A DNA stretch of 64,000 bases from assembly GCA_963765765.1 (NCBI GenBank), contig CAVXYC010000020.1, positions 1 to 64,000 on the forward strand. The letters run 5' to 3'. A model generated the notes under the pieces. It did no database searches and was not told the origin of the DNA. It was given only the letters and a program-made list of their open reading frames with translations. Source of the stretch: an uncultured Chloroflexia bacterium. Its GTDB lineage: Bacteria; Chloroflexota; UBA6077; JACCZL01. Position 1 is the stretch's first letter. The number at the start of each line of letters is the position of its first letter. Below are positions 741 to 52,371 of the stretch, in pieces. The position numbers and the translations under genes are program-made.

Positions 741-3700
741 ATGCGACTGGCGGGCGCATCCAGCGGCAGATCGATCGCAGCTTCCGACTTGAGGCCGGCT
801 CTGAGCGGCACAGCGATGATCGCAGACTGGACGCGGTGCTGGAGCTCGCCACAGCCGTGCTGGCGCTGATCCCGACAAGCGACGCGTTGGTTGCAGAGTC
901 TGCGGACCGCGCATGCTGAGGCGCCCCGGCCATGACCATTAGATCCCCCCATCGTCGGCGGCACTGTCAGCCACGGCAATAACCAGCGACACGTTCGCCA
1001 ACGGCCGCTACCAGGTCACGCGGCTGCTCGGCGAAGGCGGCAAGAAGCGCGTCTACCTGGCCCATGACACGCTGCTCGATCGCGAGGTTGCCTTCGCGCT
1101 GATCAAGACCGAGGGCCTGGATGAGGCGGGCCGCGAGCGGATTCGCCGCGAAGCCCGGGCCATGGGCCGTCTGGGATCCCATCCGAACATCGTCACCGTG
1201 CATCGATCTCGGCGAAGAGCAGGGGCAGCCGTATCTGGTGACCGAGCTCATGCCGGGCGGCGATCTGCACCGCGATCCTGGCCGCAGGCGCCGGAGCATC
1301 GCCTGCCGATCGACGCAGGTCCTTGACATCTGGCCAGCAGCTCTGCCGGGCGCTGGAGCATGCCCACGCGCAGCGAGCTCATCCACCGCGACCTCAAGCC
1401 CGGCAACATCTGGCTCACCGCCGATGGCACAGCCAAGCTGGGCGACTTCGGTCTGGCCGTGGCGTTGGATCAGACCCGCCATACCCAGCCGGGCATGATG
1501 GTCGGAACGATGGCGTACATGGCCCCCGAGCAAGCCATCGGCGGGGCCGTGGATGCGCGTTCGGATCTGTACGCGCTGGGCTGCGTGCTGTACGAGCTGG
1601 TCTGCGGGCGCCCGCCGTTCGTCGGCGAGGAATCCGTGGCCATCATCACGCCAGCATCTCAATACCCCGCCCGTCGCACCCTCCTGGCACCGGCCCGAGT
1701 GCCCGCCGGGCCTGGAAGCGCTGATCCTGCGCTTGCTGGAGAAGGATCCCGGACAAGCGGCCCGCCTCGGCCGGCGAGGTGCTCCAGGCGCTGAGCGCGA
1801 TTGACCCTAGGCCAGCCGACGTCGCGTGCCGACAGCGGATGCGACTCCCACCCGCGATGGATCCAGCGCCGCGCTCGTACCGCCAGACCTTCGTCGGCCG
1901 CGAGGCCGAGCTGCGCAGCTCGAAGAGGCCTTCGACGCGGCGCTCTCCGGCCAGGGCAGCCTGGTCATGGTGGTCGGCGAGCCGGGCATCGGCAAGACCA
2001 GCGCTGTGCGAGCAGCTCGCCACCTACGTCACGGTGCGCGGCGGCACCGCGCTGGTGGGCCACTGCTATGAGGAAGGCTCGCTCTCCCTGCCGTATCTGC
2101 CCTTCGTGGAGGCCATGCGCAGCTACGTGCTGGCCCGCGACCCGGACGGGCTTAACGAGCGACCTGGGACCGGTGCCGGCGACGTGGCCCGCATCGTCTC
2201 CGAGGTGCGCGAGCGCGTCGCCGTCCGGAGCGGCCACCCGGGCGATCCCGAGGAGGAGCGCTGGCGCTTGCTGCAGGCGGTGACCGGCTTCCTGCGCAAC
2301 GCCAGCCCGGTGCGGCCCGCTGCTCATCGTCCTGGAAGATCTGCACTGGGCCGATCGGGCACGCTCGATCTGCTCCAGCACGTGGCCCGCAACCTGGCCG
2401 GGCGCGCGATTGCTGATCGTGGGCACGTATCGGGACGTGGAGGTGGATCGCGCCCATCCGCTCTCCTCGGCGCTGGCCGAGCTGCGGCGCAGCGGCGCCT
2501 TCAGCCGCATCCCGCTGCGCGGGCTGACGGTGGACGAGGTGCATCGGATGATGCACCTGATCCGCGGCCAGGAGGTGCCCTGGAGTCGGGCCGAGGCGAT
2601 CCACCGCCAGACCGAGGGCAATCCGCTGTTCGTCCAGGAGGTGCTGCGCTACCTGGTGGAAGAGGGCCTGGTCGTGCGCGAGGGCGGCCAGTGGGTGCGC
2701 ACCGATGGCAGCGATCCCGAGGCCGGTATTCCCGAGGGGCTGCGCGACGTCATCGGCAAACGACTCTCGCGCCTCGGCGAGCTGGGCAATCGCGTGCTGA
2801 GCGTGGCCTCGGTGATCGGCCGGGAGTTCCGCCTCGATGTGCTCGAGCGCGTGGCCGGGCTGCCCGAGGAGGAGCTGTACAGCGCGCCTGGACGAGGCGC
2901 GCGATCGGGCGGTGGTGGAGGAGCGCAGCGGTCCGGCCGGGCGCCGTGACGTATCGCTTCACCCACGCCTTCTTCCGCCAGACGCTGTACGAGGAGCTGA
3001 GCGCGCCGCGGCGCATCCGGCTGCACCAGCAGGTGGCGCGGGCGTTGGAGGACGTCCACGGCAGGCGAACGGAGGAGCACGCCGCCGAGCTGGCCGAGCA
3101 CTTCTGCGCACTCGTCGGATCCCGGGGATCTGGAGAAGGCGGTGCGGTACGGCGAGCTGGCGGCGCAGCGGGCGCTGAGCGTGTACGCCTACGGGGAGGC
3201 CGCCCGACACCTGGAGCAGGCGCTGGAGGTCCAGGAGGTGCTGGACCCGGACGACCACTCGAAGCGCTGCGATCTGCTGCTGGCACTGGGCGAAGCGATG
3301 CTGCCACTGGAAGACCCGGTGCGCGTGAGTGCCACGGTCGGCACCGGAGGCGTTCGCGCTGGCCGAAGCGCTCGGCGACTCGGACCGCGCCGCGCGGGCC
3401 GCCATCCAGGCCTGGAGTCTTTGATTCGCTCGACGGGTTCCACTCCACGGCTTGCCGGCGTCCCGGAGTTTCAAGAGTGGGCGGCCCGCGCGGATCGCTG
3501 CGCGCAACCGGGGACCGCCCAGCGCGTCTACGCCGACATCTACCAGGGGCTCGCGCAGATCGGTGCCCGGCCGGCCGCGGCTGGGCATGTGTTCTTGAGG
3601 CGCGCGGTGGAAGGGGCGCTCACCCTCGATGACACTCCCTGGTGTTCGCGGCGGCGGGGTGGGCGTTCCGGAACCTCAGCGCGCTTCGGGACGGTGACAC

Positions 3701-5263
3701 GGTGATGCGTCTTGCCCAGGAGGTGCTGCGCCGCCCGCGCCATGGCTCACGGGCGACCGACCTGGGAATCTGCCTGTACTGGGCGGGGATCAGCTGCTTG
3801 GCAGCGGGCAGCGCGACCACGCCGAGATAGCGTGGCGCGAGCTGACGCAGCTTGCCGAGCACACGCAGGATCGAAGCTGCGAGTCCAGGCGCTGACCCCG
3901 CCCGCTGTCCTGGCGTTCGTCGATGGGCGTCTCGAGGAGGCGGTCGCATTATTCGAAGCACGCGCCGCCACGGCGCTGGAGCTGGGCGTCGGAGTCGCTG
4001 CGCCCCGCGAAGCTGAGCGCCCCGGCGCTCCTGTACCTCGGGCGTGGTACCGAGGCCGTCCTGGAAGAATTGCGGGAGATCTACGAACGAATGCCAGGGC
4101 CGTCCTGACCAAGCGAAGGCGGCGCTCGTGCTCGCCTTGCTGGGGCGCCACGCCGAGGCGCGGGCCATCCGTGAGCGGTTCGAGGATATCGGATCGGAGC
4201 ACGACGAAACGAGTAAGGGACTTCTTGTGTCCCTGTTCGAAGCGGCAATCCTCGGCGCCGACCGGGAGACCCTCAGCGCGCTCCTGCCTCGATTTGCGCC
4301 GCTGGGGAACACGTTGTGGATCAGCCGAGCGGGTCGTTCGAACCGCACCTCAGCGTCGGCCGACTCGTGGGCGCAGCTGCCGTGCTGCTCGGTCAGTACG
4401 AGGAGGCTCGCGACTTCTACCACAGGCGCTCGACGCGTGCGCCAGGGTGCGGTTTCGTCCCGAGATCGCCATCATCCACGTCCATCTCGCCGAGCTGCTC
4501 CTGGATCACTACCCGGACGAGCGCAATGCTGCCATCGAGCATCTCGACTTCGCCATCGGCGAGCTGCGCGCGATGAAGATGCAGCCCATGCTGGAACGGG
4601 CCCTCCGCCGCAAGCTCCAGCTCCAGGGCGTCGAATCCATCTCACCCAGCACCTCGATCGACGCGGTCAGCCTCGCCGTGGCCATCGAGCGGCCCGATCT
4701 GCGGCCCCACGCCGCGCCCGATGGCACCGTGACGCTGCTGTTCACGCGACATCGAAGACTACAGCGCCATGACCCTGCGCCTTGGCGATCAGCGCTGGCT
4801 GCGAGGTGCTCCGTGCGCACCACGCGCTCGTCCGCCAGCAGCGTGCAGGATCACGGCGGGTTCGAGGTGAAGTGCCAGGGGGATGGCTTCATGCTGGCGT
4901 TCGGCAGTGCCCGGCGGGCGCTGGAGTGCGCCGTCGCCATTCAGCAAGCCTCCACTCCGACGCCCCAACCGCCGCAGCCGTCCGCGTGCGCATGGGCTTG
5001 CACACCGGGAGGCCATCAAAGAAGAGGACGACTTTCACGGCACCACGTGGTCCTCGCCGCGCGCATCGCCGAGAAGGCCGAGGGCGGTGAGATCCTGGTC
5101 TCGGAGCTGCTGCGGACCCTGCTCGGATCGCTGGCCGGGGTGGAGATGCGCGATGCCGGTCGCAAGCAGCTCAAGGGCTTGCCCGGTCGCCACACGGCTC
5201 TATCAGGCGGTGTGGGATGGCGAACGGGCGCATCCAGCGCCAGATCGATCGCCTGCTCGATGA
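741..5263 (+). CDS. Ser/Thr kinase - STAND (AAA_16-type) NTPase - TPR - class III cyclase, paralog 2 (many apparent frameshifts)
   Basis: Joined frames give [31 protein letters not shown]; [43 protein letters not shown]; a helical repeat region; and cyclase motifs [10 protein letters not shown] and HVVLAARIA. The exact ends are uncertain. Confidence 0.85.
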
Positions 5264-8200
5264 GATCGACAGCGTCGGATCCGAGAGGAGCTGGACGACG
5301 GTGCGGGACCATGCCCAGCACGTGCTGGCGCTCGATCCCGAGCAACGTCGATGCGCTGCGCTTTCTCGTGGCCATCGCCGAGCGCGCGCCTTGGCGATGC
5401 CGCGTCGGCAACCGGCCCGGGGCATCAGCCGCCCCGATGCAGCCGGCCCCCAAGGCTTTCGCCAACGGCCGGTACCAGGTGTCGCGACTGCTCGGCGAGG
5501 GGGCGAAGAAGCGTGTCTTCCAGGCCCACGATACCCGACTGGGCCGGGACGTGGCCTTCGCGCTGATCAAGACCGACGGGCTGGATGCCACCGGCCGCGA
5601 CCGCCTGCAGCGCGAGACGCGAGCCATGGCCCGACTGGGGACCATCCGCAACATCGTCACGGTGTTCGACCTCGGCGACGATCACGGCCAGCCCTACCTG
5701 GTAAGCCAGCTCATGGCCGGGCGGCAGCCTGGATCAGCGGCTGGCGCAAGCATCGGAGCATCGACTGCCGCTGGAGCAGGCGGTAGCGATCGCCGTGAGA
5801 GGTGTGCCGGGCGCTGGAGCATGCGCACGCGCACAGCGTGATCCACCGTGACCTCAAGCCGGGCAACATCTGGCTCACGGATGACGGGACAGCCAAGCTG
5901 GGGGACTTTGGTCTCGCGGTAGCCCTGGATCAGACCCGCCATACCCAGCCCGGGATGATGGTCGGCACAGTCGCCTACATGGCGCCCGGAACAGGCCATT
6001 GGGTGGCGGAGTCGATGCGCGCAGCGATCTCTACAGCCTGGGCTGCGTGCTGTACGAGATGGTCTGCGGCCGACCGCCGTTCGTTGGCGACGAGAGCGTG
6101 GCGATCATCAGCTCAGCACCTCAATACGCCGCCGGTGAATCCGTCCTGGCACCGTCCCGATATCCCGCCGGGCCTGGAAGCGCTGATTCTCCGCTTGCTG
6201 GAGAAGGATCCGGGCAAGCGGCCTCGAGTCGCGTCGGACGTCTCCAGGCATTGGCGGCCATCGACCTTGAAGCATCCCCGCCGCGACCTCGAGATCGAGC
6301 GGTCCCCGTCGGCGCAGTGCGCAGGACGCGCAGCTCTACCAGCAGACGTTCGTGGGTCGCGAGGCAGGAGGTCCGCCAGATCCAGGCGGCCTATGACGCT
6401 GCCGTCTCCGGCCAGGGCAGCCTGGTGACGGTGGTGGGCGAGCCGGGCATCGGCAAGACGGCACTCTGCGAGCAGCTCGCCACCTATGTGGCCGTGCGCG
6501 GGGGCGAACGCTGGTGGGCCACTGTTACGGCGAAGGCTCCACATCGCTCCCCTATTTGCCGTTCGTCGAGGCGCTCCGCATCTACGTGCTGGCGCGCGAA
6601 CCGGATGCGCCTGCGCAGCGAGCTCGGCCGGCGCCGGGGACCTGGCCCGCATCGTCTCCGAGGTCCGCGAACGCCTCCAGGTCGAGCCGCGACCCGGGCG
6701 GTGACCCGGAGGAAGACCGCTGGCGACTCCTGCAAGCGGTCACCGGGTTCCTGCGCAATGCCAGTCGCGTGCAGCCGATCGCTGCTCGTGCTGGAAGACC
6801 TGCACTGGGCGGATCGCGGCACGCTCGATCTCCTGCTGCACGTGGCCCGCAATCTGGCCGGCGCCCGGCTGCTCTGGTGGTCGGCCACCTACCGCGACGT
6901 CGAGGTGGACCGCGCCCACCCGCTGTCATCCGGCCCTGGCCGAGCTGCGGCGCGATCCGCGACCTTCATGCGCGTCGCCCTGCGCGGGCTCACGGTGGAC
7001 GAAGTCCATCGGATGATGCAGTCTGATTCGGGGACAGGAAATTCCCTGGAGCCGGGCGGAAGCGATCCACCGTCAGACCGAGGGCAATCCACTGTTCGTC
7101 CAGGAAGTGCTGCGCTACATCGTCGAGGAGGGCCTCCTCATGCGCGAGGGCGGCCGCTGGGTGCGCACCGACGCCGGGCGAGCCGGACGCCGGCATACCA
7201 GAGGGGCTGCGCGATGTGATCGGCAAGCGGCTGACCCGGCTGAGCACGTCGTGCAATCGGGTGCTGGCCGTTGCCGGCGGTCATCGGCCGGGAGTTCCGC
7301 CTGGATGTGCTCCAGGGGGTGGCCGCCTGCCCGAAGAGGACTTGTACGCGGCACTGGAGGAAGCCCGGCCGTGGCGGTGGTCGAGCAGCGATCGGCAATG
7401 GGCAGCGGTGTCACGCTTCCGCTTCGCCCACGCCTTCTTCCGCCAGACCCTGTACGAGGAGATGTTCGTGCCGCGCCGGATCCGCTTGCACCAGCAGGTC
7501 GCCCGGGTGCTGGAGGAGGTCCACGCGCGGCGGCTGGAGTGAGCACGCGGCCGAGCTGGCCGAGCACTTTGCCCAATCCACGGAGCCGGAGGATCTGGCC
7601 AAGGCGCTGCACTACAGCGAGCTGGGGGCCGAGCGGGCGCTGAGCGTCTATCGCCTATGCGGAGGCGGCGCGGCTGCTGGAACAGGCGTTGCAGGTGCAG
7701 GATGTGCTGGAGCCAGACGATCACACGAAACGGTGTGATCTTCTGCTGGCGCTGGGCCAGGCGCTCATGCCGGCCGGCGAGCCAGAGCGGGTGAGCGACG
7801 AGATTGCCTCGCAAGCGCTGGCGCAGGCCGAGCGCGCGGGCGACGCCACGCGTGTGGCCAGGGTGTCGCGGCTGGCGCTGGAGGCCCTCCATCGAAGGCT
7901 GGCCGCGCTGGCGCCGGCACTCCAGCGTGGCGGAATGGGCCGAGCGGGCAGATGCGAGCCGGCCGACCCGGCAGTCCCGGAGCGAGCCTACGCCGATGTG
8001 CGATGGGACGGCTCCGCTCGCTCAGCAGCGCCACGAAGAGGGCGTCATCCTGCTCGCACGGGCGTGGAGCTGGCGCGAGAGCTAGGCGACGCGGAGCTCT
8101 TTGCGACCGCTGGCTGGCAGGCGATCCGGTTTCAGATGACATCAGGAACGAATGGCGGGACGCTGTAGCGCTGGCGGATGAGCTGCTGGCGCGACCGCGC

Positions 8201-9693
8201 GACGGGGTATCGCTTCGCACCCAGGGACAGATCCTGGAATTCTGCGGTAGCGCGCTGCTGGTGAAAGAGGACCGGGAGGGTGCGGTTCAATGCTGGCACG
8301 ATCTCGCGGAGTTGGCTGAGCGGAGCCGTGATCCATTCATTCGGCTGAACGCGCTGAGCTACCAGGCCGTCAGTCGCGATGTTGGACGGTCGGCTGGATG
8401 AGGCGGCCGAGCTAGGGCGCCGCCTGAGAGAACAGGGGGAGGAGCTCGGCGCTCCGCAGGTGGGCATGGGTTTCGCCGCGACGCGGCTGGACCGGCACTG
8501 CCCGCTGCTGGGTCGGAACGACGAGTGTCGCGAGTGGTGCAAGCATCAGCGCATGGGATGCCCAGGTGCGGCACTGTCCCACGCGCTCGTCGGAGACCGC
8601 GAGGAAGCGCGGAGGCTGCTTGACGATTGCCCTCAACCGAACCGCTACGGATGCTCCCGAGCCGAGCGGCTCGCGCTTTACCGGAGCTTCTCAACATACT
8701 CGTTCGATGCTTGGAGGCCGCGATTGTGCTTGAAGACACATCGCTGGTCCAGGTGCTTGCCCGTGAACTTCCGAGCGGCGCCGGCATTCCACCGGCCGAT
8801 CGCGGGCTAACCTGCCTCTATCGTCACCTGGGGGCCGCAGCGGCACTGCTCGGGGACACGAAGGAGGGGGTGGCTTGGTACCGGCGGGCGATTGACGCGT
8901 GCGAGCGAGTTCGCAGCCGTCCCGACCTGGCGCTGAGTCGCCTGGGGCTCGCCGAGCTGCTCCTGGATCATTATCCGGATCAGCAAGCCGAGGCGCTGGA
9001 GCACCTGGAATTCGTTATTGCCGAATGCAGGGCAATGCACATGCAGCCCGCGCTCCAGCGGGCTCTTCGACGGAAGTTGCAGCACCAGGGCATCGATGAC
9101 GAGCACTCCCGAGACGTCTATCGACGCGCTCACGCTGACCGTGCGGGCTGAGCGACCAGACCTGAGGCCGCACGCCGCACCGGATGGTACCGTGACGCTG
9201 CTCTTCACGGATATCGAAGACTCCAGCGGACTTGACCGTGCGACTCGGCGATCATGCGTTGGCCCAGGAGATGCTGCGCGCGCATCACGCGCTGATGCGG
9301 CAGCAGGTCGCACGATCACGGCGGGATTCGAAGTCAAATGCCAGGGCGATGGCTTCATGGTGGCCTTCCGTAGCGCTCGTCGGGCGCTGGACTGCGCGGT
9401 GGCCATTCAGCGGGCGGTCGAAGCGGACAACCCGATGCACCCTGAGTCAGCCATTCGCGTGCGCATCGGTCTGCACCCGGCGAGGCGCTCAAGGAAGCCG
9501 ATGACTTCCATGGCAAGCCGTGGTCCTTGCGGCGCGCATCGCGAATAAGGCCCAGGGGGGAGAGATCCTGGTGTCTTCATTGCTGCGCGATCTCACTGAT
9601 ACGGGAGCGGGCATCAGTTTCGATGCGGGTGACGACATCGAGCTGAAGGGGCTGGTTGGAACACAGCGGGTGTTTCGCGTGCTTCGGGGTTGA
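5217..9693 (+). CDS. Ser/Thr kinase - STAND NTPase - TPR - class III cyclase, paralog 3 (many apparent frameshifts)
   Basis: Starts [17 protein letters not shown]; [68 protein letters not shown]; ends [16 protein letters not shown]-stop at 9691-9693. Confidence 0.85.
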
Positions 9694-13444: not shown

Positions 13445-14654
13445 ATGACCCGTCGAGGCCACGGAGAAGGATCCATCTACAAGGACGGCGACGGTCGATG
13501 GCGCGCCGTTGTGGATCTCGGCTGGCAGCAAGGCAAGCGCAAGCGGAAGTACCTCTCGGGGAAGACGCGCCGCGAAGTCCAGGAGAAGCTCTCGGCCGCG
13601 TTGCGCGCTCATCACCAGGGCATTGCGGTTGGGATTGACGAGCGGCAGACACTCGGGAAGTTCTTGACGCAGTGGCTCGAGTCTGTGAAGTCTTCTGTCC
13701 GCCCATCGACGCTTCGCTCGTACAGCCATTACGCGACATTCCATCTGATACCCGAACTGGGGAACGTCCGCCTCGCAAGCCTCACGGCTCAGCAGGTCCA
13801 GAGCATGCTCACTCGGAAGCTGGCGTCGGGCTTGGCGCCGCGGACTGTTCAGCACCTCCGGGCCGTGCTCCGAACCGCACTGGCGCAGGCGCTCCGCTGG
13901 GATCTTGTCCCGCGGAATGTTGCCGAGCTTGTCAGCGGCCCGCGCGTGGAAAAGGTGGAGATTCAGCCGCTCACTCCAGAACAGGCACGGCAGATGATCT
14001 CGGCGGTCCGAGACGATCGCCTGGGAGCGCTCTACATCCTGGCTCTGGCCACGGGGCTGCGTCAGGGCGAGCTGCTGGGTCTCCGCTGGCAGGACGTCGA
14101 TCCCGAGGGGCTCACGCTCCGCGTCAGTCGCACCCTGCAACGTGTCGACGGACAGTACCAGCTTCAGGAGCCCAAAACCCATCGCAGCCGGCGTGCATTG
14201 GTCCTTACCGGCCATCGCAGCGGAGGTACTCATTCGACACCGTGAACGTCAGGCCGAAGAGCGCGCCATATTCGGATCCGATTGGATCAATCAGGAGATG
14301 GTATTCACGACGGATCGCGGGGCACCGCTCAACACGAGCAGCGTGACCCATCGCTTTCAGGATCTGCTCAAGAAAGCCGGGCTACCGAAGCAGCGCTTCC
14401 ATGATCTGCGCCACGGTTGTGCAACGCTGCTGCTGTCTCAGGGCGTCCAGGGACGGACCGTCATGGGCACCCTCGGACACTCACAGATCAGTCTCACCAT
14501 GGACACCTATGGGCATTTGACGCCCTCCATGGAAGCCGACGCGGCCGCGAGGATGGATGCGATCCTTCGCGGCGATGATTCTTTTTCGCCCCGTTTGGCT
14601 GCCGACTTGGCTGCCAGTCTGAACGAAGCTCACGATGGAGAGCAGGAAAAATGA
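13445..14654 (+). CDS. int: Tyrosine recombinase/integrase (one apparent frameshift near 14210)
   Basis: MTRRGHGEGSIYK arm-binding start, GLRQGELLGLRWQDVD, EPKT, RFHDLRHGCAT, LGHSQISLTMDTYGH (the R-K-HxxR-H-Y set). Confidence 0.93.
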
Positions 14655-22504: not shown

Positions 22505-24901
22505 TCAAGGCATCAGACCCATCGCCCGCCAGAACGGCACGCTGACAAGTACGCCAACGAGTATGGCGGCGGCGTAGACAATGGCGATCGGGCGGATCTG
22601 TTCATGAGAAAAGAGTCGGCCGTCGACGCCACTGTAGAGCGCGAGATAGATCGTGCTCTGGTAAGGCAAGATCCAAAGGTTCGTCGCGGTCAGGGCGATG
22701 ATGCCAATGACAAATGGGTTGATCCCAATTGCCGCCGCCGGCGGGCTCATGACAAGGGTGAAAAGCACCGAGGCTGCCTGCCACCGCACCACAAACGACA
22801 TCAGAATGCCGACCCCCGCAAATCCAAGAAGGAAGAGAGTCGGCACACCAGCGAGCGGTGCAAGAAGCTGCGACATCGTTTCGCCCATCCACGTATCGAC
22901 TTTGAGCGTTGTGAATACTTCTCCGAGACTCGTGATCGCACCGAAGAAAATGACGAAGCTCCAATTAATGCCGTTTCGGAAGCTGTTCGTATCTACGATC
23001 CCGAGACTGCCCAGTACCAGTAGGCCTGCGCCTGCGATCCAGGCGGCATTGATCTTGTGCCACGGTTCCGTCACCAGGCCGACAATCAGCATCACCATGA
23101 CCACCGCGGAGATCCACTCGGCTGATGAAGGCTTCCCAAGCGCCTCAGTCTGCGCGCGCAGGAGCTGATTGCTCACTTCGATGCGTGCGCCATCGCGGAA
23201 CTTCCAGATTGCCGCCGCCAGCGTAATGACAAAGAGCGTTGCATGAAGCGGCAGCGCACCGATGAGCCACGGGAGAAACGAGAATTGTGCCTGGACTTCT
23301 GCCGGGAGCACACTGTGGACGAGTAGGCCACTGGACGTACCAGTCAGGAACAACGTGCCCATCAGGCCGAACCCCAGGAGCGTGGCGATGCCAATGATGA
23401 CCGAGCTCGTCCCTCTTCTCGCCAGGCCAAACGCGTCCACCATCTCTAACCCAACGGGCGCGGATAGAGCCATTCGACTCGTCGCGTTCGGCATCGATGG
23501 AGTGAAGAGCAGCCCGGCTGCGGCCAGCGTGAGCGATTGGGCAACGAGATTTCGGGGAGCCCGGTTGGCGAGCGATAACACAGCTCGATAGAGCAGCCCA
23601 GTCTTGCCGATGCCAACCCCGATGCCCAGGATGGCGAGCACCACGAACCAGGTGGTATTCGCAAAGCCCGAAAGCGCAACGCGAGCCGGCACCAGTCCCA
23701 ATCCGGCCCAGCCCACGATGAGAAACACGGCCACAAGGTGATCCGCGATCACTTCAAGAACCATGAGCGGCACGCTCGCCGCCAGGATCGCCAGGGCAAG
23801 CTGACCCTCGCGACTAAGCCCGGGAGGCGGCGGCGGTAGAGCAATCAGCGCAAAAAGCGCGATTGCCAGGCCGATGCCCCACTGATTTTTCCGCGAAAGC
23901 GTAACGAATCCGCGCTTCTTCACTACGTCTGCGGCAACATTCTCGACAAAGCTGGCATTTATCAATTCGAGACGCGGCTCGTTTTTGAGTGCCGCTGACG
24001 GAACAGTGCGGAGCCACTGTCGGAGTGATGTCCTATCGGCATCAGAAAGCGTTCCGTTGGCCGTCTCTAGGAGACGTACCACTTCGCTCCACATCTCAGC
24101 CGCTCCATAGTGACGTGCGGCCGAGGGCGTGTCTCCCTCGCTCTCACGAGCCTGAGCGATGATTCTGTGTACATCGCGAAGCTCATCCACCGAGGCAGTG
24201 CTCACCAGCTCCGCATTCAGCGCATCGCGGAGTGGACGCATCATCACGCCGCTACCTGAACCCAGAGACACGAGCGACGGCTCTTCGGCCAGCAATTGCA
24301 ATGCAGCTTGGAGGCGATCACCCCCTAGCGCGGCTATGACACCGGCGGACAACGATTCTGCAAGCGAGGCATGTCGCAGGGCCTGCCGAGCGTCGGGATC
24401 GATGAGCTCAAGTCGGCGGTTAATCATCGAGCGCAGCGTGCTTGAGAGCTCTGCTATTGCCCGATTACGCGCCTGGAGACGTTCTCCGAGCGCCAGATTG
24501 AGGCGACGACCGAACTCGGGATAGAGCCCGGCAAGCTGGCGATACCGCGCCTGGGTCAGATACAGCGCCATGACGGTCGTTCGGGCGACCAATCCGGCAC
24601 CGCCCTCCATTACACCTCCGAGCGCCACCTCCCCGAAGGTATCACCCGGCTCAAGCATGGCAACGGATTCAGCCGAGCCATCTGCACGCTCAGTGACAAT
24701 GTCCGCGATTCCTTCGCACAGGATCAACAGACCATCGGCGTGACTACCGACCGGAACCATGACTTCGCCTGGTTCGTAGAGTCGTGCCTCTACCGCGCTG
24801 ACCAGCTTTGCGAGCTCAACGGAAGGGAGCCCCTTGAACAGCGGGGCGGCGGCGATGGCTCGATTGACGTCGTGGTCGGCTTTGATCATTGGACGAGGCA
24901 A
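22505..24901 (-). CDS. cNMP-binding domain + MalT-like helical segment + SLC13/DASS anion transporter fusion
   Basis: PLFKGL..LEPGDTFGEVAL; a central helical region; C-terminal TM domain with GLSREGQLALAI, MPNATSR, INWSFVIFFG, PYQSTIY. Confidence 0.85.
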   Translation of the reverse strand: MPRPMIKADHDVNRAIAAAPLFKGLPSVELAKLVSAVEARLYEPGEVMVPVGSHADGLLILCEGIADIVTERADGSAESVAMLEPGDTFGEVALGGVMEGGAGLVARTTVMALYLTQARYRQLAGLYPEFGRRLNLALGERLQARNRAIAELSSTLRSMINRRLELIDPDARQALRHASLAESLSAGVIAALGGDRLQAALQLLAEEPSLVSLGSGSGVMMRPLRDALNAELVSTASVDELRDVHRIIAQARESEGDTPSAARHYGAAEMWSEVVRLLETANGTLSDADRTSLRQWLRTVPSAALKNEPRLELINASFVENVAADVVKKRGFVTLSRKNQWGIGLAIALFALIALPPPPPGLSREGQLALAILAASVPLMVLEVIADHLVAVFLIVGWAGLGLVPARVALSGFANTTWFVVLAILGIGVGIGKTGLLYRAVLSLANRAPRNLVAQSLTLAAAGLLFTPSMPNATSRMALSAPVGLEMVDAFGLARRGTSSVIIGIATLLGFGLMGTLFLTGTSSGLLVHSVLPAEVQAQFSFLPWLIGALPLHATLFVITLAAAIWKFRDGARIEVSNQLLRAQTEALGKPSSAEWISAVVMVMLIVGLVTEPWHKINAAWIAGAGLLVLGSLGIVDTNSFRNGINWSFVIFFGAITSLGEVFTTLKVDTWMGETMSQLLAPLAGVPTLFLLGFAGVGILMSFVVRWQAASVLFTLVMSPPAAAIGINPFVIGIIALTATNLWILPYQSTIYLALYSGVDGRLFSHEQIRPIAIVYAAAILVGVLVSVPFWRAMGLMP

Positions 24902-30788: not shown

Positions 30789-32409
30789 CTACGGGCGCGG
30801 ACGAGCATCCCGACTCGTGGCGGTTCCCTCCACTGTCGCCGCAAGAGCCCGCCAGGTGGCCATGAGCTGATCGAAGTCTCCCCGCGTCACGACAATAACA
30901 TCGACCGGAGTGACCGCCCGTACTGAAGCATTGCGCCGTTGGTGACGGAGTAATGCCATCTCACCGAACGACTCCCCCGGGCCAAGCCGAGCAATCTCCC
31001 GCTCATCTCCATTGACGTTCTGCACCACTTGCGCTTCGCCGCGCTCAATGACGTAGAACGCGTCCGCGGTGTGTCCCTGGCGAATGATCATCTCACCCTC
31101 ATCGTAAAAAGCCGAGGTTATGCGGTCTGTCCTATCGACATTGAGCTGCGCCAGATCGCGACGGAAGAACAGATCAAGATTCCAATCGAGCCAGACTCGC
31201 AGCTTGCGGTCGAAACCCGGGAGGCGCATCAGATAGAAGCCTCTCCAGGCGAGCCACGCGCTCAAGCCGGCCAATCGAAACGTGTTGCCGAGCTCCGCCA
31301 CCGCGGATTGGTGCCCCAACGAGACCATCTGTCCCATGCCACGAAATCTGAAGGGCACCAACGCGTCGCCCTTGAGACGCGCGTATACGTTCCTCGCCAG
31401 CGTGTCCGCCTCCCGCAGGGCAAACTGTGCACTCGGCGGAGCGAATCCGGAGCCATCAACGAGGGGAACAGCGGCACAGTCACCCAGTGCCCACACGTCA
31501 TCCCGTCCCTGCAGACGCATCGTCGCATCAACCAACAGCCGACCGCGCTCTTTGGGCACGTCAAGAGGCTGAATGACGGGGTTTGGCGAGGCGCCAACGG
31601 CCACGATGAGCGAGCGGGACGCGATCACTTGACCGTTAGCCAGGTGCACATGCGTGGCAGTGGCGGACTGGAGTTGCGCGCCGAGACGGACCTCAACGCC
31701 ACGCTCACTGAGTTTGCGGTGGGCGAACGCGGCAAGCTTTTCCCCCAATCTCAGGAAGAATCCGCTGTCCGCGTTGAAGCAACACCACCTTGATCTCAGA
31801 CCGATCGATGGATGGATAAAGCTCCACGGAGTCAACCAGGTAGTCATAGAGCTCCGCGGCCATTTCCACTCCGGAAAATCCAGCTCCACAGACCACAAAA
31901 GTCAGCAGCGGCGCTCGCATCGAGGGATCGGACATCGCCGCGGCCGCTTCTACCATATGCACGGCGCGATTCCGAATGTTGAGCGCATCCCCGATCGTCT
32001 TAAACGGTAGTCCATGCTCGGCCACACCCTGGAGGCCGGTCAGGTTCACCGACGACCCGAGCGCTACCACCAGTGTGTCGAAGGAAAGCGTATGCGATTC
32101 AGTTGTCGCCGCGTCACGCGTCTCGACAGTGTGCGAGTCGAGGTCGATCGACTGAACCGTCTCGACTCGAATCGAAGTCCTGGGAAGCATCGAGCGGAGC
32201 GGACTAAGGATATGTGTCAGCTCGACGCTACCCGCCGCGGCTTCAGCGAGCATGGGTAGAAACAGCAAGTAGTTCGTCTGGCTGACCAGCGTGACCCGGA
32301 TTCTTGGGCCACGTTTTCGCGCGAGCTTCTGGAGGGTCTGGGCCACCGTCACGCCACCGAATCCACCACCAAGGATGAGGACGCGGTGAGGTGCAAGGTG
32401 GTTGGCCAT
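30789..32409 (-). CDS. ndh: Type II NADH dehydrogenase with a C-terminal cNMP-binding domain (one frameshift)
   Basis: ILGGGFGG, FLPML, VVCGAGFSGVEMAAE, WALGDCA, APPSAQFA, then IIRQG..FYVIERG..GESFGEMALL..RNASVRA; GGAGG RBS. Confidence 0.88.
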
Positions 32410-45345: not shown

Positions 45346-46344
45346 ATGCTCAAGCTCTCTGTCCTGGACCAGTCGCCCATTGCGCGCGGCAAGACACCGG
45401 CCGAGGGTATCCAGGACACGCTCAGGCTCGCCGAAGCCGCGGATAAGCTTGGTTACCAACGGTACTGGCTAGCAGAGCATCACTCCAGCAAGCGACTGGC
45501 CAGCCCTTCGCCGGAGATCCTCATTGGTCAGGTCGCCGCGCGAACGTCCCGCCTGCGGGTGGGCTCCGGCGGTGTCATGCTCTCTCACTACAGCGCGCTG
45601 AAAGTCGCCGAATCGTTCCGCACGCTGGAGGCACTGTTCCCCGGCCGCATCGATCTTGGGATTGGGCGCGCGCCTGGCAGCGATCGACTCACCGCTCAGG
45701 CGCTGGCATCCGGTCCCGGCGCAATGAGCATCGAGTACTTCCCGAATCGGATTGCCGACCTGGTGCGCTTCATCCACGATGAGGTGGAACCAGAGCATCC
45801 CTTCGCCAATGTGCACGCCATGCCCACGGGTGAAACGTCCCCGGAGCTATGGCTGCTGGGCTCGAGCGCCGAAAGCGCCTCGTTCGCCGCGCATTTCGGG
45901 ACGGCATTCTCGTTCGCCCAGTTCATCACCGCCGAGGGTGGCCCCGCGGTAACCAGGGCCTATGCCCGCGCCTTCAAACCCTCCCAATATCTTGCTCAGC
46001 CCCTCGCCAACGTGGGCGTATTCGTCCTCTGCGCTGAGACTGAAGAGGAGGCCGCCGGATCTGAGCGCGCGCGCCAGCTTGCCCTGATCCGCCGATATAC
46101 CGGCCAGGACGGCGGCCCATATCCCAGTGTTGAAGAAGCCCTGAGCTATCAGCTCTCGGCACATGAGCTGGCGATACTGGAGCACGTGCGAAGCCGCACC
46201 ATTGCCGGAGTGCCCGAGGTGGTGCGAGCGAAACTCGAGGAGCTCGCCGCCGATTTCGAGGTCGATGAAGCAGTTGTCGTGACCGTGACAGCGGACTTTG
46301 AATCCCGCTTGCGCTCATATGAGCTTCTGGCAGCAAGCGTTTGA
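45346..46344 (+). CDS. LLM-class flavin-dependent oxidoreductase (YhbW-like)
   Basis: LSVLDQSP, YWLAEHH, GSGGVMLSHYS, GRIDLGIGRAPG, WLLGSS. Confidence 0.92.
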   Translation: MLKLSVLDQSPIARGKTPAEGIQDTLRLAEAADKLGYQRYWLAEHHSSKRLASPSPEILIGQVAARTSRLRVGSGGVMLSHYSALKVAESFRTLEALFPGRIDLGIGRAPGSDRLTAQALASGPGAMSIEYFPNRIADLVRFIHDEVEPEHPFANVHAMPTGETSPELWLLGSSAESASFAAHFGTAFSFAQFITAEGGPAVTRAYARAFKPSQYLAQPLANVGVFVLCAETEEEAAGSERARQLALIRRYTGQDGGPYPSVEEALSYQLSAHELAILEHVRSRTIAGVPEVVRAKLEELAADFEVDEAVVVTVTADFESRLRSYELLAASV

Positions 46345-46367: not shown

Positions 46368-47261
46368 ATGAAAGTTCGCATTGGCATTGGACTGGGCACG
46401 CAGAGCTTTCCCGTCGGACGGCTCTTTCCTGGAGCTGTGTCAGGAGATGGAGCGCATCGGCATCGATTCCATCTGGCTTTCGGAGCGCCTCACCGGACCG
46501 GCGTACGATCCGATCGTCAGCCTTTCATTTGTAGCGGGCGGGACGAAGAAGCTGAAGCTCGGCACCAGCGTGCTCGTTCTGCCGGGTCGGAACCCCGCGA
46601 TTCTCGCCAAAGAGCTCGCAACGCTCGATCGTCTCTCGAATGGTCGCATCATCCCAGCCATGGGTCTGGGCGTGGTGGATCCGATTGAGCACCAGGCCTT
46701 CCGTGTACAGCGAACCGAGAGATCTTCGATCTTCGACGAATCGCTACCGCTCCTACGTCGATTCTGGTCCGAAGATCACGTTACGCACCACGGGCAACAT
46801 TTCGACTTTGAGGACGTACCATCCAGCCGAAGCCGATTCAGCAGCTTCCAGACGTCTGGCTGGGCGGCATGGCTCCGAGCGAGCTACGCCGAACGGGCCG
46901 ATTGGGTGACGGCTGGCTGCCCAGCACGTGCACGCCCGCTGAAGCAGCCGCCGGTCGCGCGGCGATCGAGGAAGCCGCTGCCAACGCAGGCAGATCAATC
47001 GAACCGGAGCATTACGGCGCGAGCATCACTTATGTCGAAGATGAGATTCCAGACTACCTGGCCAAGCGCATCACCCGTCGACGCCCCGGAATCGATCCTC
47101 GGGAGCTCGTACCGATCGGGCTCAAGGAAACTCATGCGCTGATGGAGCGCTTCATCGACGTGGGCTTCACCAAGTTCGTGGTGCGACCTGCGAAGGAGCC
47201 GGAAAGCTGGACGCCTGAGCTCGAGCGCATCGCCGACCACCTCCTTACGCTGGAGAACTGA
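46368..47261 (+). CDS. LLM-class (possibly F420-dependent) oxidoreductase (frameshifted)
   Basis: MKVRIGIGLG, GIDSIWLSE, LGTSVLVLPGRNP, LATLDRLSNGR, GRLGDGWLP. Confidence 0.88.
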
Positions 47262-48966: not shown

Positions 48967-49194
48967 AACGGAGCCGTCAAGATCGGTCCATGCCACGATC
49001 CTCAACCGCATGTTCGTGCAGGCTTCGCCGTCCGATGTCCGTTGACGCTGAGTTGTCAGGGTGCTACTGTGCCGCCTGTCTGGCCACACGCGGTCGTCAT
49101 GTCACTCTCGTTTGACGCACCTATGTCCCTTGCAGTGAAAGTCTGGGTGATCGTCCAAGTGCTGGCGGAGCTATCCGTCGAGATTTGAGCTCCA

Positions 49195-50481
49195 ATGATC
49201 ACGAACACAAGCAAACAACGGCTCGAGCGGGCCATGCTCGATGGCTTGACGGGCACATCCCGAAAGTCCGAGCCGGCTCGGGGAAAGTCCGCGGCCGGAG
49301 GATGGATTTGGGGGGAGCCTGAGCATTACGACAGAGCTCTCGCGATGGACCCCATGCAGCTCACGGCGTTTCTGCAAAAGACGCAGCCGGAGATCCCTGA
49401 CCTTGAGATCGGAAGTCCATCGCTGCAATCGTTTCTCACGCTCCTCCAGGATGAGATCATCCGGCGCGGCGTGGTGGATGTCCTTCGACGCGGAGTGAAG
49501 GATGGCGCCCATCATCGGGACTTGTTCTTCGGCGTGCGCACATCCGCGGATCCACCATCGCCCCGACGCTTTACACAGAATCGGTTCAGCGTCATACCTG
49601 GGCTTCGCTACAGTGAGGACGAGTCCCGGCCCACCGTGGATGTCTGCCTTTTTGTGAATGGCCTGCCCATCGCCACGATCGAGCTCTCAGAACGATCCGC
49701 AGACGATGCGATTGAGCGATACAAGAACATTCCCGCAGCTCAGGAGCCGCTCTTCCAGCCCGGTCGTTGCATGGCTCATTTCGCCGTGGACGAGAAGCAG
49801 GCATACGTTTGCTCCGAGCTTCGCGGGGCCGATTCGAGATTCCAGACATTTAATCAGGGTTCAAGTGAAGGAGCTGGAAATTCTCCCAATCTCTTTGGGA
49901 TCGCCACAGAGTATCTCTGGCGAGACATCCTCACGCGACCGAGCATGGTTGACATGATCGAGAACTACGCGCAGATGTTCGAACCAGATGACGGGCTCAC
50001 TGTTGACTCGCGTGCGGCACCGATCTTCCCGCGATATCACCAGCTCGATGTCCTTCGCCGACTTCTCGCGGATGTAGAGAATCGCAACGTCGGTCAACGC
50101 TACCTGTTAGAACACTCGGACACCAATGGCACGTCGCATTCCATAGCCTGGCTCACCGGTCAGCTTATTGACGCACAGCAAGATAGCGTTCGCATCTTCG
50201 ACACTGTCTTCGTGCTGACGGATCGACCGTCCCTCGTCCGTCACGTCGGGGAATCGGTCCGTGGATTCTCTAGAGTCGGTGCTCAGGTACGGCCCGAGAT
50301 AGACGCATCGACGCAGATCCAGGCAGCCATCGAGAGCGGCGCGAGAATCATCATCGCCAACGTCGACCAGCTCCCAGCGATTCTGGATGAGATCGAGGCA
50401 CACCAGCGCGGTCGCAGATTCGCATTTGTCTTTGATGAGGCCTCACAGATGGGACTGAGGAGCAGATTAACGGGGCGTTAA
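49195..50481 (+). CDS. hsdR: Truncated, catalytically degenerate type I restriction subunit R homolog, copy 1
   Basis: NRFSV, DVCLFVNGLPIATIELS, AHFAVD, FPRYHQLD, HSDTNGTS (eroded Walker A), VLTDR, VFDEAS; stops at 428 aa. Confidence 0.8.
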   Translation: MITNTSKQRLERAMLDGLTGTSRKSEPARGKSAAGGWIWGEPEHYDRALAMDPMQLTAFLQKTQPEIPDLEIGSPSLQSFLTLLQDEIIRRGVVDVLRRGVKDGAHHRDLFFGVRTSADPPSPRRFTQNRFSVIPGLRYSEDESRPTVDVCLFVNGLPIATIELSERSADDAIERYKNIPAAQEPLFQPGRCMAHFAVDEKQAYVCSELRGADSRFQTFNQGSSEGAGNSPNLFGIATEYLWRDILTRPSMVDMIENYAQMFEPDDGLTVDSRAAPIFPRYHQLDVLRRLLADVENRNVGQRYLLEHSDTNGTSHSIAWLTGQLIDAQQDSVRIFDTVFVLTDRPSLVRHVGESVRGFSRVGAQVRPEIDASTQIQAAIESGARIIIANVDQLPAILDEIEAHQRGRRFAFVFDEASQMGLRSRLTGR

Positions 50482-50659
50482 GCGGACGTACGCCCCTACC
50501 GAATACGAGCACCTTTGTTTTCGCTCCGACCGCCAACGCCACTACGCTGGAGCTCTTTGGCCGGCCGTTCAACGATCGCGGCACCACAAAGTATTCCCCC
50601 TTCCACTCGTACATCGGATAGTGTCGGCTAGCGAGTTGCGGATGTCGCCGGCAGCCAGG

Positions 50660-50817
50660 GCGGCCGATCATCTTGTCGGCCGGGCCCCTGAGGGCCGCCA
50701 TCGGGCACCACAGCTACGGTACGTTAATGGTACTTAGCCGGCGGCCCTTCGGAAGGGCCGGGCCGACAAGATATCGGCGGTCGCAGTTCAGTCGGGTCGA
50801 CAGCACGTCGGCGGTCC
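50660..50817. repeat. Degenerate REP cluster of the same family as 48843-48966
   Basis: gccgatcatcttgtcggc, gccgacaagatatcggcggtcgcagt and gtcgacagcacgtcggcggtcc, compared with gccgacaggatgtcggcggtcccagt. Confidence 0.7.
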
Positions 50818-50834
50818 AGCGCTATGATCTCCGA

Positions 50835-52371
50835 ATGACTACGTACGCCGGCGGGCCTCGATTAGAGCGCACCATCCTGCAAGCACTTACGGGCAAGCGG
50901 GTCGACGTGACGCGCGCCTCGCGCGACCGCATGGAGACATCGGGCGGATGGCGCTGGGGGCAACCCGAGGACTACGACCCGGAATTCGTACTGGATCCGA
51001 TCCAATTATGGGAGTTCCTGTCCACCACCCAGGTCACAAGCGAGCAGGAGCGACAGATCGTGGACCTCAGTCCAGGTAGCCCAACTCGTCAGGCGTTTCT
51101 CTCAGCGCTTCGCTGGGAGGTCTCCTACCGGGGCATTGCGGACGTGATGCGGCGCGGTATGTCCTACGGCCCGCTCAGCCTGACGTTGTTCTACGGTCTC
51201 TCCGGACCACCACCTCATGGATCGATGCGGCTGTTCCGCATGAACCGATTCAGCGTGACGCCGCGGCTCCCATATGGCCGGAGATGAGACTGGCGACCGC
51301 GTGGACCTTTGCTTCTTCCTCAACGGGCTGCCCCTCTTCACTGTCAAACTGGCGGACGGCTTAGAGATTGCAAATGAAGAGGCGGCGATCGACTGGTACA
51401 GAGAGATATCGCCAGGCTCGGCGAAACTCTTCGAGACAGGCCGTTGCCTGGCTCATTTCGCGGTTGATGATCAGCGAGTCTCCTACTGTGCCAATCTCGA
51501 TGAATCGGACTCGGTGTTTCATCCGTTCAACCAGGGGCTGAGTCAGCGCGCGGCCAACCGTCGGAAGCTCTTCGGTGTCCCAACAGAGTATCTCTGGCGG
51601 ACCATTCTTACTCGCCGAAGCGTGGTGGATCTCATTGAGAACTACGCTCTGATCGTGGCAACGGAGGATGCAACGACCGGCGCCGCGGGTCGAGCCGCGA
51701 TCTTCCCACGCTACCATCAGTTAGATGTTGTGCGTCGCCTTCTAGCGGACATCGACTACTACGGGGTTGGCCGCCGCTACCTGATTCAGCACTCGCAAGG
51801 AAGCGGGAAATCTCAGTCGATGATCTGGCTCATCAGTCAGATAATCGCGCTCGAGCTAGTTGATATGGCGATGTTCGGTACAGTCGTCATCGTGACAGAT
51901 CGGCCCTCATCAGATCATTGGCTTCTGGACTCGGTTCGACAATTCTCGCGAGTGAGCGCGATTGTCGACGCCAGAGAAATGAACACCGCGCACATTGAGG
52001 AGAATCTGGAAAGTCCCAACCGGATCATTCTCGTGAACGTGAAGGACTTCGCGTTTGTCCTGGACGAAATCAAGGTGCACTTTCACGGCTACGGCTACGC
52101 CATCGTCATTGATGAGACACAATCATCGACGCCCGAGAGCTCAACCTCTGATTCTGCTCACAATGATTCATCAATGGTCGCTCAGGGTCCCGACACCCTC
52201 GAAGACCAGGTCAACCGTGCCATGGCCGACCGCGACTATCTCCCGAACGCGAGCTACTTCGTCTTCAGCTCCACGCCAAACGGAAAAACGCTTGAGCTGT
52301 TCGGCAAGTCCTACAACGATCGCGGAACGATTAAATACCGGCCCTTCCACCAGTTCGGCCTCTCCGAGTAG
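50835..52371 (+). CDS. hsdR: Truncated, degenerate type I restriction subunit R homolog, copy 2 (one frameshift near 51280)
   Basis: GQPEDYD, NRFSVT, DLCFFLNGLPLFTVKLA, FPRYHQLDVVRRLL, HSQGSGKS, VTDR, VIDETQSS, FSSTP; ends PFHQFGLSE. Confidence 0.8.

Follow-up and report, generated by a model that had tools for sequence, protein, structure and literature searches.

The kinase domains encoded in a tandem gene array of an uncultured Chloroflexia bacterium lack the lysine of the beta-3 VAIK motif and instead carry a lysine at the sixth position of the glycine-rich loop (Gly-loop), which is where the eukaryotic WNK kinases have theirs. Protein kinases as a rule anchor ATP through a beta-3 lysine; the textbook exception is WNK. 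The array occupies the first 9.7 kb of the 64,000-nucleotide stretch that was analyzed here (the window), which is the first 64 kb of contig CAVXYC010000020.1 (C20) of assembly GCA_963765765.1. This assembly comprises 6.49 Mb in 33 contigs, with 61% G+C, a completeness of 91.8%, and a contamination of 6.9%. The array consists of three paralogous genes on the plus strand, two of which include the kinase domain. Taken together, our results make it likely that these domains belong to one PknB-like clade with a relocated, WNK-position lysine, that they are working kinases, that the clade is independent of WNK, and that the frameshifts present in the window copies are assembly errors. The WNK-like geometry itself is well supported by evolution, and its origin appears to be convergent.

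The two lysine sites vary together across the family. An exhaustive search of 1.84 billion representatives was performed, and the best 150 proteins yielded 260 kinase domains that could be aligned over at least 200 residues. In 69 of these 260 domains, Gly-loop position 6 is a lysine, and the beta-3 position is then an alanine (61 domains) or a serine (8 domains). The 166 domains that do have the beta-3 lysine show glycine (114), alanine (30), serine (11), threonine (4), or another residue other than lysine at position 6. Not one of the 260 domains has a lysine at both sites, and not one has alanine or serine at beta-3 without the Gly-loop lysine. This pattern is well beyond chance and is a family trait. 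In a FastTree phylogeny of the 260 domains, the 69 lysine-shifted (K-shift) domains and one N-terminally truncated member form a single clade with a support of 0.998. When a second database was searched, 117 of the best 120 proteins were single-kinase family members, all with the Gly-loop lysine (Lys18) and the alphaC glutamate (Glu53), and with alanine (115), serine (1), or glycine (1) at beta-3 position 35; the remaining 3 were multi-kinase proteins with canonical motifs. Within this genome, the absence of the beta-3 lysine and the presence of the Gly-loop lysine are common to all six paralogs.

The rest of the catalytic machinery is retained. In an alignment of 67 sequences (A1), G13, G15, K18, V20, H129, R130, D131, N136, D149, Y173, P176, and E177 are identical throughout, and at least 90% of the sequences share E53, K133, F150, and G151. 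The alphaC glutamate is kept in 68 of the 69 family domains, and in a second alignment of 31 sequences (A2) both K18 and E53 are invariant. Of the catalytic residues expected in a PF00069 kinase, the HRD aspartate, the asparagine, the DFG aspartate, APE, and the alphaC glutamate are present in the family and all of them in window copy 2; the beta-3 lysine is replaced by alanine or serine in 69 of 69 family domains. The combination typical of WNK, a lysine at Gly-loop position 6 and none at beta-3, is therefore what the family has. A preliminary description of the window had proposed a prokaryotic kinase family with a WNK-type arrangement, and the invariant Lys18, the alanine or serine at beta-3, and the otherwise intact machinery bear this out. 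The motifs that it pointed to can be read in the translations, GEGGKKRVY with VAFALIK in copy 2 and GEGAKKRVF with VAFALIK in copy 3. Both copies keep HRDLKPGN and DFG, and APE is clear in copy 2 and disrupted in copy 3 by an insertion of 1 nucleotide (nt) (open reading frame [ORF] 5802-6428), also as described.

Alignment with HMMER to StkP and PknB places the family alanine on the catalytic lysine and the lysine of the family motif ALIK on the arginine of VAVKVLR. The family profile runs ungapped against PknB over 29 residues, with K18 on S23, A35 on K40, and K38 on R43, and there is no indel relative to PknB in the segment from the Gly-loop to beta-3. The spacing of 17 residues between K18 and A35 is the same as that between G55 and K72 of PKA. 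Kannan et al. (2007, PMC1821047) reported that WNK shifted K72 to position 55, which is K233 in WNK1, and a 2025 review (PMC12599244) describes the beta-3 lysine of WNK as replaced by cysteine, with the lysine having migrated to beta-2. Judged by this spacing and by the analysis of Kannan et al., Lys18, the sixth Gly-loop residue, is at the position equivalent to K233 of WNK1. We also made an AlphaFold2 model of the kinase domain of P0001, the kinase-domain protein of the sole intact paralog in this genome (contig C23, 42298-41480), based on 67 aligned sequences and with a mean predicted local distance difference test score (pLDDT) of 90.9. Secondary structure assignment by DSSP gave beta-1 at residues 6-14, beta-2 at 18-25, beta-3 at 30-37, and alphaC at 44-59. 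Because of the strand limits in this model, Lys18 opens beta-2, as in WNK, and Lys38, the lysine of ALIK, lies just past the end of beta-3.

Despite this likeness to WNK in the active site, the nearest relatives of the family are bacterial. With the whole domain as the query, a sequence search of the PDB returned StkP first (E value, 1e-57), followed by PknB, PknE, Stk1, and PknA (E values from 1e-57 to 1e-46). The best Foldseek matches were PknB, PknA, Stk1, PknE, and PknF, with template modeling (TM) scores of 0.77 to 0.87, and WNK was not among the matches listed (ranks 1 to 49). The N-lobe alone found WNK1 in the PDB with an E value of 0.009 at about rank 58, compared to 5e-8 for StkP, and the N-lobe profile of the family found it with an E value of 1e-7 at about rank 35, compared to 2e-16 for StkP; these longer N-lobe searches also list WNK3, which is low-ranked like WNK1. 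A short profile from the Gly-loop to beta-3 (A3) gave no WNK among the 40 PDB matches listed. Both the nearest sequences and the nearest folds are thus those of PknB-like bacterial kinases, and not those of WNK as common descent would have it. Since the clade is nested in the bacterial PknB-like kinases, the resemblance to WNK is best described as convergent, and the lysine shift appears to have arisen inside bacterial kinases, independently of WNK. The preliminary description had called the family "convergent or related" to WNK. With PknB, StkP, PknA, and PknE as the nearest relatives, the first of these terms stands and the second falls. The idea that the eukaryotic WNKs descended from the bacterial K-shift clade was set aside, as the nearest relatives of the clade are PknB-like.

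The family is not confined to this genome. In contigs representing one genome per species, the Gly-loop lysine was found in 46 of the 70 loci with an N-lobe match. Judged by their titles, these 46 loci are mostly from Chloroflexota, Dehalococcoidia, SAR202, or uncultured "Chloroflexia"; 12 are from Solirubrobacterales or Thermoleophilia, and 1 is from a "Deltaproteobacteria" metagenome-assembled genome. The Solirubrobacterales-type loci read G[RE]GGRKRVY ... VAVAVF[E/D], with one ending in S. In an even sample of 401 genomes from the phylum of the window, at least 6, including this genome (G000), carry the family at an E value of 1e-22 or less, which is a lower bound, as 14 candidates were scored per genome. 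One relative, G140, has eight family copies, of which five lie within uninterrupted frames of 1310 to 1358 amino acids, and multi-copy expansion and intact genes therefore seem normal for the family. Another relative, the 3024-amino-acid protein P0005, combines a GAF domain, two K-shift kinase domains in tandem, and a pair of AAA_16 modules. The kinase motifs of P0005 are GEGAYKRVY with VALALLK and GEGAFKRVY with VALALVK, so that an aromatic residue stands directly before the Gly-loop lysine. The WNK Gly-loop motif, GRGSFK, also has an aromatic residue before the lysine.

Two other positions differ between K-shift and canonical domains. Position 17 is lysine or arginine in 55 of the 69 family domains, compared to methionine in 108 of the 166 canonical domains, and position 50, the site of the alphaC "RF" phenylalanine, is valine, isoleucine, or leucine in 62 of the 69 family domains, compared to phenylalanine in 138 of the 166 canonical ones. 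According to the bacterial serine/threonine kinase (bSTK) atlas preprint (bioRxiv 10.1101/2025.01.12.632604), packing of the Gly-loop methionine against the alphaC RF-phenylalanine is typical of bacterial kinases. As positions 17 and 50 have changed alongside the lysine, the interface around it appears to have been rebuilt as a set. We propose that Lys18, located at the start of beta-2, would take over from the usual beta-3 residue in providing the charge for the ATP phosphates and Glu53, and that this shift would be accompanied by a remodeled interface between the Gly-loop and alphaC, with lysine or arginine in place of the methionine and valine, isoleucine, or leucine in place of the RF phenylalanine. 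The domains would then be working kinases and not pseudokinases. Nucleotide-dependent assembly of the AAA_16/TPR scaffold to which they are fused may bring the kinase domains together, and also the cyclase domains where these are present.

Several points weigh against this proposal. That Lys18 would contact ATP and Glu53 is deduced from the homology of its position. Under the usual sequence-based definition, a kinase without the VAIK lysine counts as a pseudokinase, and the bSTK atlas preprint (bioRxiv 10.1101/2025.01.12.632604) annotates such families accordingly. The Chloroflexota branch also shows good conservation of Lys38 (62 of 69 domains), so that a local role for this residue is possible there. 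In addition, frameshifts in the arrays of this genome occur at a density of roughly one per 100 to 270 nt, whereas rpoC is intact over 1458 amino acids. If the family consisted of true pseudokinases, the domain would transfer no phosphate and would act as a nucleotide-binding or dimerizing module that regulates the STAND ATPase and the cyclase. The VAIK lysine is indeed absent from every family member, published bacterial classifications (the bSTK atlas preprint; PMC12599244) give such families this label, and the signaling function could be carried by the other output domains in the fusion. However, the bacterial pseudokinase families described in the available text of these sources also have a degraded HRD, DFG, or both, whereas in the K-shift family the HRD aspartate, the asparagine, the DFG aspartate, APE, and the alphaC glutamate are invariant or nearly so and are accompanied by an invariant compensating lysine. 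The kinase domain is also under strong purifying selection, and WNK is an example of activity with this arrangement (PMC1821047). A pseudokinase is therefore unlikely in our opinion. The preliminary description had itself raised the possibility that the lysine of ALIK fills the beta-3 site. A register shift or bulge in beta-3 would then give Lys38 the canonical role in an ordinary active site, and the Gly-loop lysines would be incidental. Lys38 lies just three residues past the canonical site and is a lysine in 113 of the 117 nearest proteins as well. On the other hand, the ungapped alignment puts it on Arg43 of VAVKVLR in PknB, a site that is often basic in ordinary kinases (position 38 is arginine in 31 of the 166 canonical domains), beta-3 ends at residue 37 in the model, and a residue at i+3 on a strand would face the opposite side. 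Position 38 is glutamate, aspartate, or serine in the 12 Solirubrobacterales-type loci, which keep K18 and E53 and have no lysine in or after beta-3, and it is arginine or glutamine in 7 of the 69 family domains. These substitutions argue strongly against a register shift, which we therefore consider very improbable.

It was also suggested in the preliminary description that the kinase might be sensitive to anions or osmolarity. The vacated beta-3 lysine site would then form an anion pocket as in WNK, and the kinase would be a chloride or osmolarity sensor. The one argument in favor of this is the analogy with WNK, whose lysine shift is tied to its chloride sensor in a review (PMC5346417). In the same review, two leucines of the DLG motif, Leu369 and Leu371, are described as forming the chloride pocket of WNK1. 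The family, in contrast, has D149-F150-G151-L152, with D149 invariant and F150 present in at least 90% of the 67 sequences. As the WNK pocket uses the DLG leucines and the family keeps DFG, chloride sensing is unsupported. The STAND and TPR sensor modules in the fusion suggest other inputs, the array has no ties to ion-transport genes, and nothing else points to chloride. We did not find grounds to retain this suggestion, and the chance that it is correct seems very slim. It could also be that the relocated lysine is part of a ligand-gated active site, in which the rebuilt cavity would bind a switching anion or small ligand, as chloride is bound in WNK. The ligand would perhaps be a nucleotide made by the protein's own cyclase, and prokaryotes would have made recurrent, regulated use of the K72-to-G55 shift. 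This is quite doubtful, but if the ligand were the nucleotide of the protein's own cyclase, the STAND sensor would couple cAMP output to phosphorylation. We continue to favor an active kinase in which Lys18 would take over the role of the beta-3 lysine.

The window copies themselves are frame-broken. The preliminary description spoke of two complete kinases, but both window copies lack a continuous open reading frame. At least five frame changes are needed to read the kinase domain of copy 2, and comparison with the intact paralog, P0001, our reference for indels and substitutions, shows seven indels in this domain of about 820 nt. The kinase domain of copy 3 has six indels, and the other three broken paralogs of the genome have three to nine, so that five of the six paralogs carry three to nine indels per about 820 nt. 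Many indels of 1 to 4 nt are spread across the whole of copy 2. The earlier statement that a sequencing error is unlikely thus holds for the motif, which is found in all six paralogs and in 69 of 260 domains, but not for the genes, with their many indels. These frameshifts are most likely indel errors of the assembly and not signs of gene death. The pairwise ratio of nonsynonymous to synonymous substitution rates (dN/dS) relative to the intact paralog is 0.14 to 0.23 for the five copies, with values of 0.15 to 0.19 for those in the window, and there are no stops in the 264 to 270 frame-restored codons. The middle section of rpoB of this genome (C20:326017-329370, minus strand; profile positions 556-724) is found in other frames, and a dnaE paralog (C18:163984-167678, minus strand) is likewise split. 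As the essential rpoB gene is frame-broken too, indel errors of the assembly are not confined to the kinase arrays. In contigs that a rock metagenome yielded for relatives, single-base differences are seen at window positions 1650, 2000, 2400, and 2886, at or near tblastn frame switches; this comparison covers one public run and a 0.05 share of the sampled words, and it is based on short contigs of relatives, of which 304 of 661 are less than 90% alike to the window.

Alternatively, the window copies may be real, recently dead pseudogenes of a decaying array that no longer encode anything functional, with the family functional elsewhere. This would agree with the number of indels in five of the six paralogs. 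The paralogs differ by 17 to 27% in their DNA and are not near-identical repeats, so that repeat collapse is no obvious cause of the frameshifts. Moreover, the intact rpoC adjoins rpoB on the same contig, and an integrase fragment and other split genes are present nearby. Low dN/dS values and the lack of in-frame stops after frame restoration are, however, hard to square with three to nine indels in each copy, and seven indels without a matching burst of neutral substitutions are not a product of decay. The broken frame of rpoB, an essential single-copy gene in the same assembly, and the single-base differences in the relatives' contigs also argue against pseudogenes. Decay of the array is, in our judgment, rather unlikely, and errors of the assembly are the explanation that we prefer.

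Each gene of the array (Table 1) would encode a large cytoplasmic signaling protein. Copy 2 has, in this order, an N-terminal helical region, a Ser/Thr kinase domain, an AAA_16/STAND ATPase domain, TPR-like repeats, and a class III cyclase domain. What is left of copy 1 is the last part of the helical/TPR region together with a class III cyclase (about 231-720; Guanylate_cyc match at C20:231-452), with one frame switch near 514. Full-length relatives have about 1270 to 1500 residues, with an optional double zinc ribbon, Pkinase, AAA_16, and TPR repeats, and in a subset also a C-terminal Guanylate_cyc domain. The window copies have a short helical N terminus in place of the zinc ribbon, and the cyclase is present. 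The combination of Pkinase, AAA_16, and TPR_12 in the relatives P0024, P0036, P0060, and P0151 is a STAND-type, PknK-like architecture, and AAA_16 was matched in window copies 2 and 3 as well. P0024 scores 171.7 bits against PF00069 (gathering cut-off, 31.7 bits) and 72.8 bits against Guanylate_cyc (PF00211; cut-off, 21.9 bits), which predicts a fusion to a class III cyclase. The C-lobe fragments of the window kinases score 64.5 (copy 2) and 63.7 bits against Pkinase. Their N-lobe fragments alone score 28.3 (copy 2) and 29.4 bits, below the cut-off of 31.7 bits that is set for a whole protein. A second tandem array of the same kinase-STAND-TPR-cyclase gene, with four to five paralogs, is located on contig C23 (28000-49000, minus strand). 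A single member of that array (42592-40367) has an intact kinase domain, within an open frame of 742 amino acids.

Table 1. Features of the kinase-STAND-TPR-cyclase array in the window (C20 coordinates)
Feature	Position	Strand	Basis or remark
Copy 1, C-terminal fragment, cut by contig end	3..738	+	tblastn with P0024 residues 1223-1460; ORF translations
Copy 2, whole gene, ends approximate	741..5226	+	tblastn frame map, three-frame translations, sequence at 741
Copy 2 kinase domain (Pfam Pkinase), in pieces in three frames	994..1800	+	Pfam on fragments
Copy 2 Gly-rich loop GEGGKKRVY	1030..1056	+	Frame 1; contains invariant Lys18
Copy 2 Lys18 codon, proposed catalytic lysine at WNK position	1045..1047	+
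Copy 2 strand beta-3, VAFALIK	1087..1107	+	Frame 1 translation
Copy 2 Ala35 codon, at canonical catalytic-lysine site	1096..1098	+
Copy 2 Lys38 codon, ALIK lysine	1105..1107	+
Copy 2 alphaC Glu53 codon, expected salt-bridge partner of catalytic lysine	1150..1152	+
Copy 2 catalytic loop and activation segment	1384..1530	+	ORF 1360-1794; HRDLKPGN 1384-1407, DFG 1444-1452, APE 1522-1530
Copy 2 AAA_16 (STAND-type NTPase) domain, frame-broken	1904..2400	+	AAA_16 match C20:1904-2035; tblastn with P0024 residues 320-535
Copy 2 class III adenylate/guanylate cyclase domain, approximate	4720..5210	+	tblastn, P0024 residues 1202-1466 onto 4426-5223; Pfam domains of P0024
Copy 3, whole gene, frame-broken	about 5217..9690	+	Same architecture as copy 2
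Copy 3 kinase domain	5458..6290	+
Copy 3 Gly-loop GEGAKKRVF	5494..5520	+
Copy 3 strand beta-3, VAFALIK	5551..5571	+
Copy 3 AAA_16 domain	6365..6874	+
Copy 3 cyclase domain	about 9100..9680	+

Class III cyclases usually have a transition-state asparagine in the motif VNxAAR. At this site, the cyclase at window 4426-5223 and its relatives (e.g., C23 42710-43828) have an 11-residue stretch. Two proteins with a cNMP_binding domain are encoded on the minus strand within 30 kb of the cyclase-bearing array, one of 798 amino acids fused to a Na/sulfate-symporter-type transporter (22508-24901) and one fused to an NDH2-like pyridine-nucleotide oxidoreductase fragment (30792-31898). It is possible that these two proteins are cAMP effectors. 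Other genes in the window also appear to be incomplete or split. A few kilobases downstream of the array, an ORF at 13445-14242 (plus strand) has a match to Phage_int_SAM_3 and a partial one, limited to the first part of the profile, to Phage_integrase, as a truncated or frame-broken tyrosine recombinase would. A gene resembling the type I restriction R subunit (HsdR) appears to be split at 49189-52368 (plus strand), with HSDR_N in ORF 49189-50478 and SWI2_SNF2/ResIII in ORF 51259-52368; the pieces between these two ORFs gave no family match, and the C-terminal part of the helicase was not found in this gene. Two adjoining ORFs for luciferase-like monooxygenases (45346-46341 and 46381-47139, plus strand), of which the second covers profile positions 25-156 only, may reflect a further broken frame or a tandem pair in which one copy is truncated.

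Full-text searches, which did not extend to supplements and subscription papers, returned no publication that describes a family of bacterial Hanks-type kinases whose catalytic lysine is in the Gly-loop. In the available text of two papers on bacterial kinases from the Kannan laboratory (PMC12599244; bioRxiv 10.1101/2025.01.12.632604), WNK is brought up solely as a eukaryotic analogy. Seven bacterial pseudokinase families have been described (ActPs1-3, GLW, CP1, DYD, and DLHK), and none of them fits the K-shift clade as far as their available descriptions go. Kannan et al. (2007, PMC1821047) called WNK the only functional eukaryotic protein kinase family without K72. The K-shift clade comprises hundreds of clusters at 90% identity. 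A large bacterial clade in which the same swap is fixed and under selection, with the other catalytic residues kept, suggests that this solution has evolved more than once. It also means that motif-based pipelines will mislabel K-shift proteins as pseudokinases. The value of our findings is limited in that the window's own copies are frame-broken and the analysis is computational throughout. Nevertheless, the mechanics and the regulatory consequences of a relocated lysine could be tested in this family, whose members are simple bacterial proteins, and the family draws attention to a little-studied class of kinase-STAND-cyclase sensors that is expanded in soil and groundwater Chloroflexota.

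Compared to WNK1, the family likewise has no beta-3 VAIK lysine, has a lysine at PKA position 55, 17 residues upstream, and retains the alphaC glutamate, HRD, and the core. The two differ in the beta-3 residue, which is alanine or serine in the bacterial family and cysteine in WNK, and in the DFG motif, which is DLG in WNK, so that a leucine of the chloride pocket is missing in the family. Gly-loop position 5 is lysine or arginine rather than phenylalanine, P0005 excepted. The WNK accessory domains are absent as well; the fusion partners of the kinase are AAA_16, TPR, and cyclase domains instead. [quoted passage not shown] These are small-molecule kinases, however, and not of the Hanks type, and they have Arg55, Met72, and a phenylalanine in place of the alphaC glutamate. 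The CP1 pseudokinases (O'Boyle et al., 2025, PMC12599244) resemble the family in that a cytosolic kinase-like domain is joined to a predicted ATPase of the COG3899 type, and part of them lack the VAIK lysine. CP1 proteins have been described from cyanobacteria and proteobacteria, have GAF/PAS domains, and show a variably degraded HRD and DFG, and the available text of that paper describes no compensation by a Gly-loop lysine; the K-shift clade, in contrast, keeps all other motifs. PknK is mentioned as a multi-domain family in the bSTK atlas preprint (bioRxiv 10.1101/2025.01.12.632604).

PknB, PknA, and PknE of Mycobacterium tuberculosis and also StkP and Stk1 share the overall domain, the activation segment, and the catalytic loop with the family. 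They keep the beta-3 lysine, the Gly-loop methionine, and the alphaC RF-phenylalanine, all three of which have been replaced in the K-shift clade, and they are mostly membrane receptor kinases, whereas the K-shift proteins are STAND fusions. The best NCBIfam model for P0024 is that of the TOMM kinase/cyclase fusion, TIGR03903, which is also a large fusion of a kinase, a cyclase, and an ATPase-like region. The score of 336.1 bits is well below the cut-off of 705.75, and the match leaves out the kinase N-lobe (it covers only residues 55-272 of P0001). Presumably, the domain order of TIGR03903 also differs from that of P0024. IMG names members of the family [quoted passage not shown]. In PknK-type kinases, an N-terminal kinase is followed by a STAND NTPase and helical repeats, and the mycobacterial cyclase-AAA-TPR proteins have a similar scaffold. 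The PknK of M. tuberculosis has the canonical lysine. The proteins described here share with the former the order of kinase, AAA_16/STAND domain, and helical repeats and with the latter a class III cyclase on an ATPase-TPR scaffold. They differ from both in that the kinase and the cyclase are combined in one polypeptide and in that the kinase lysine is relocated.

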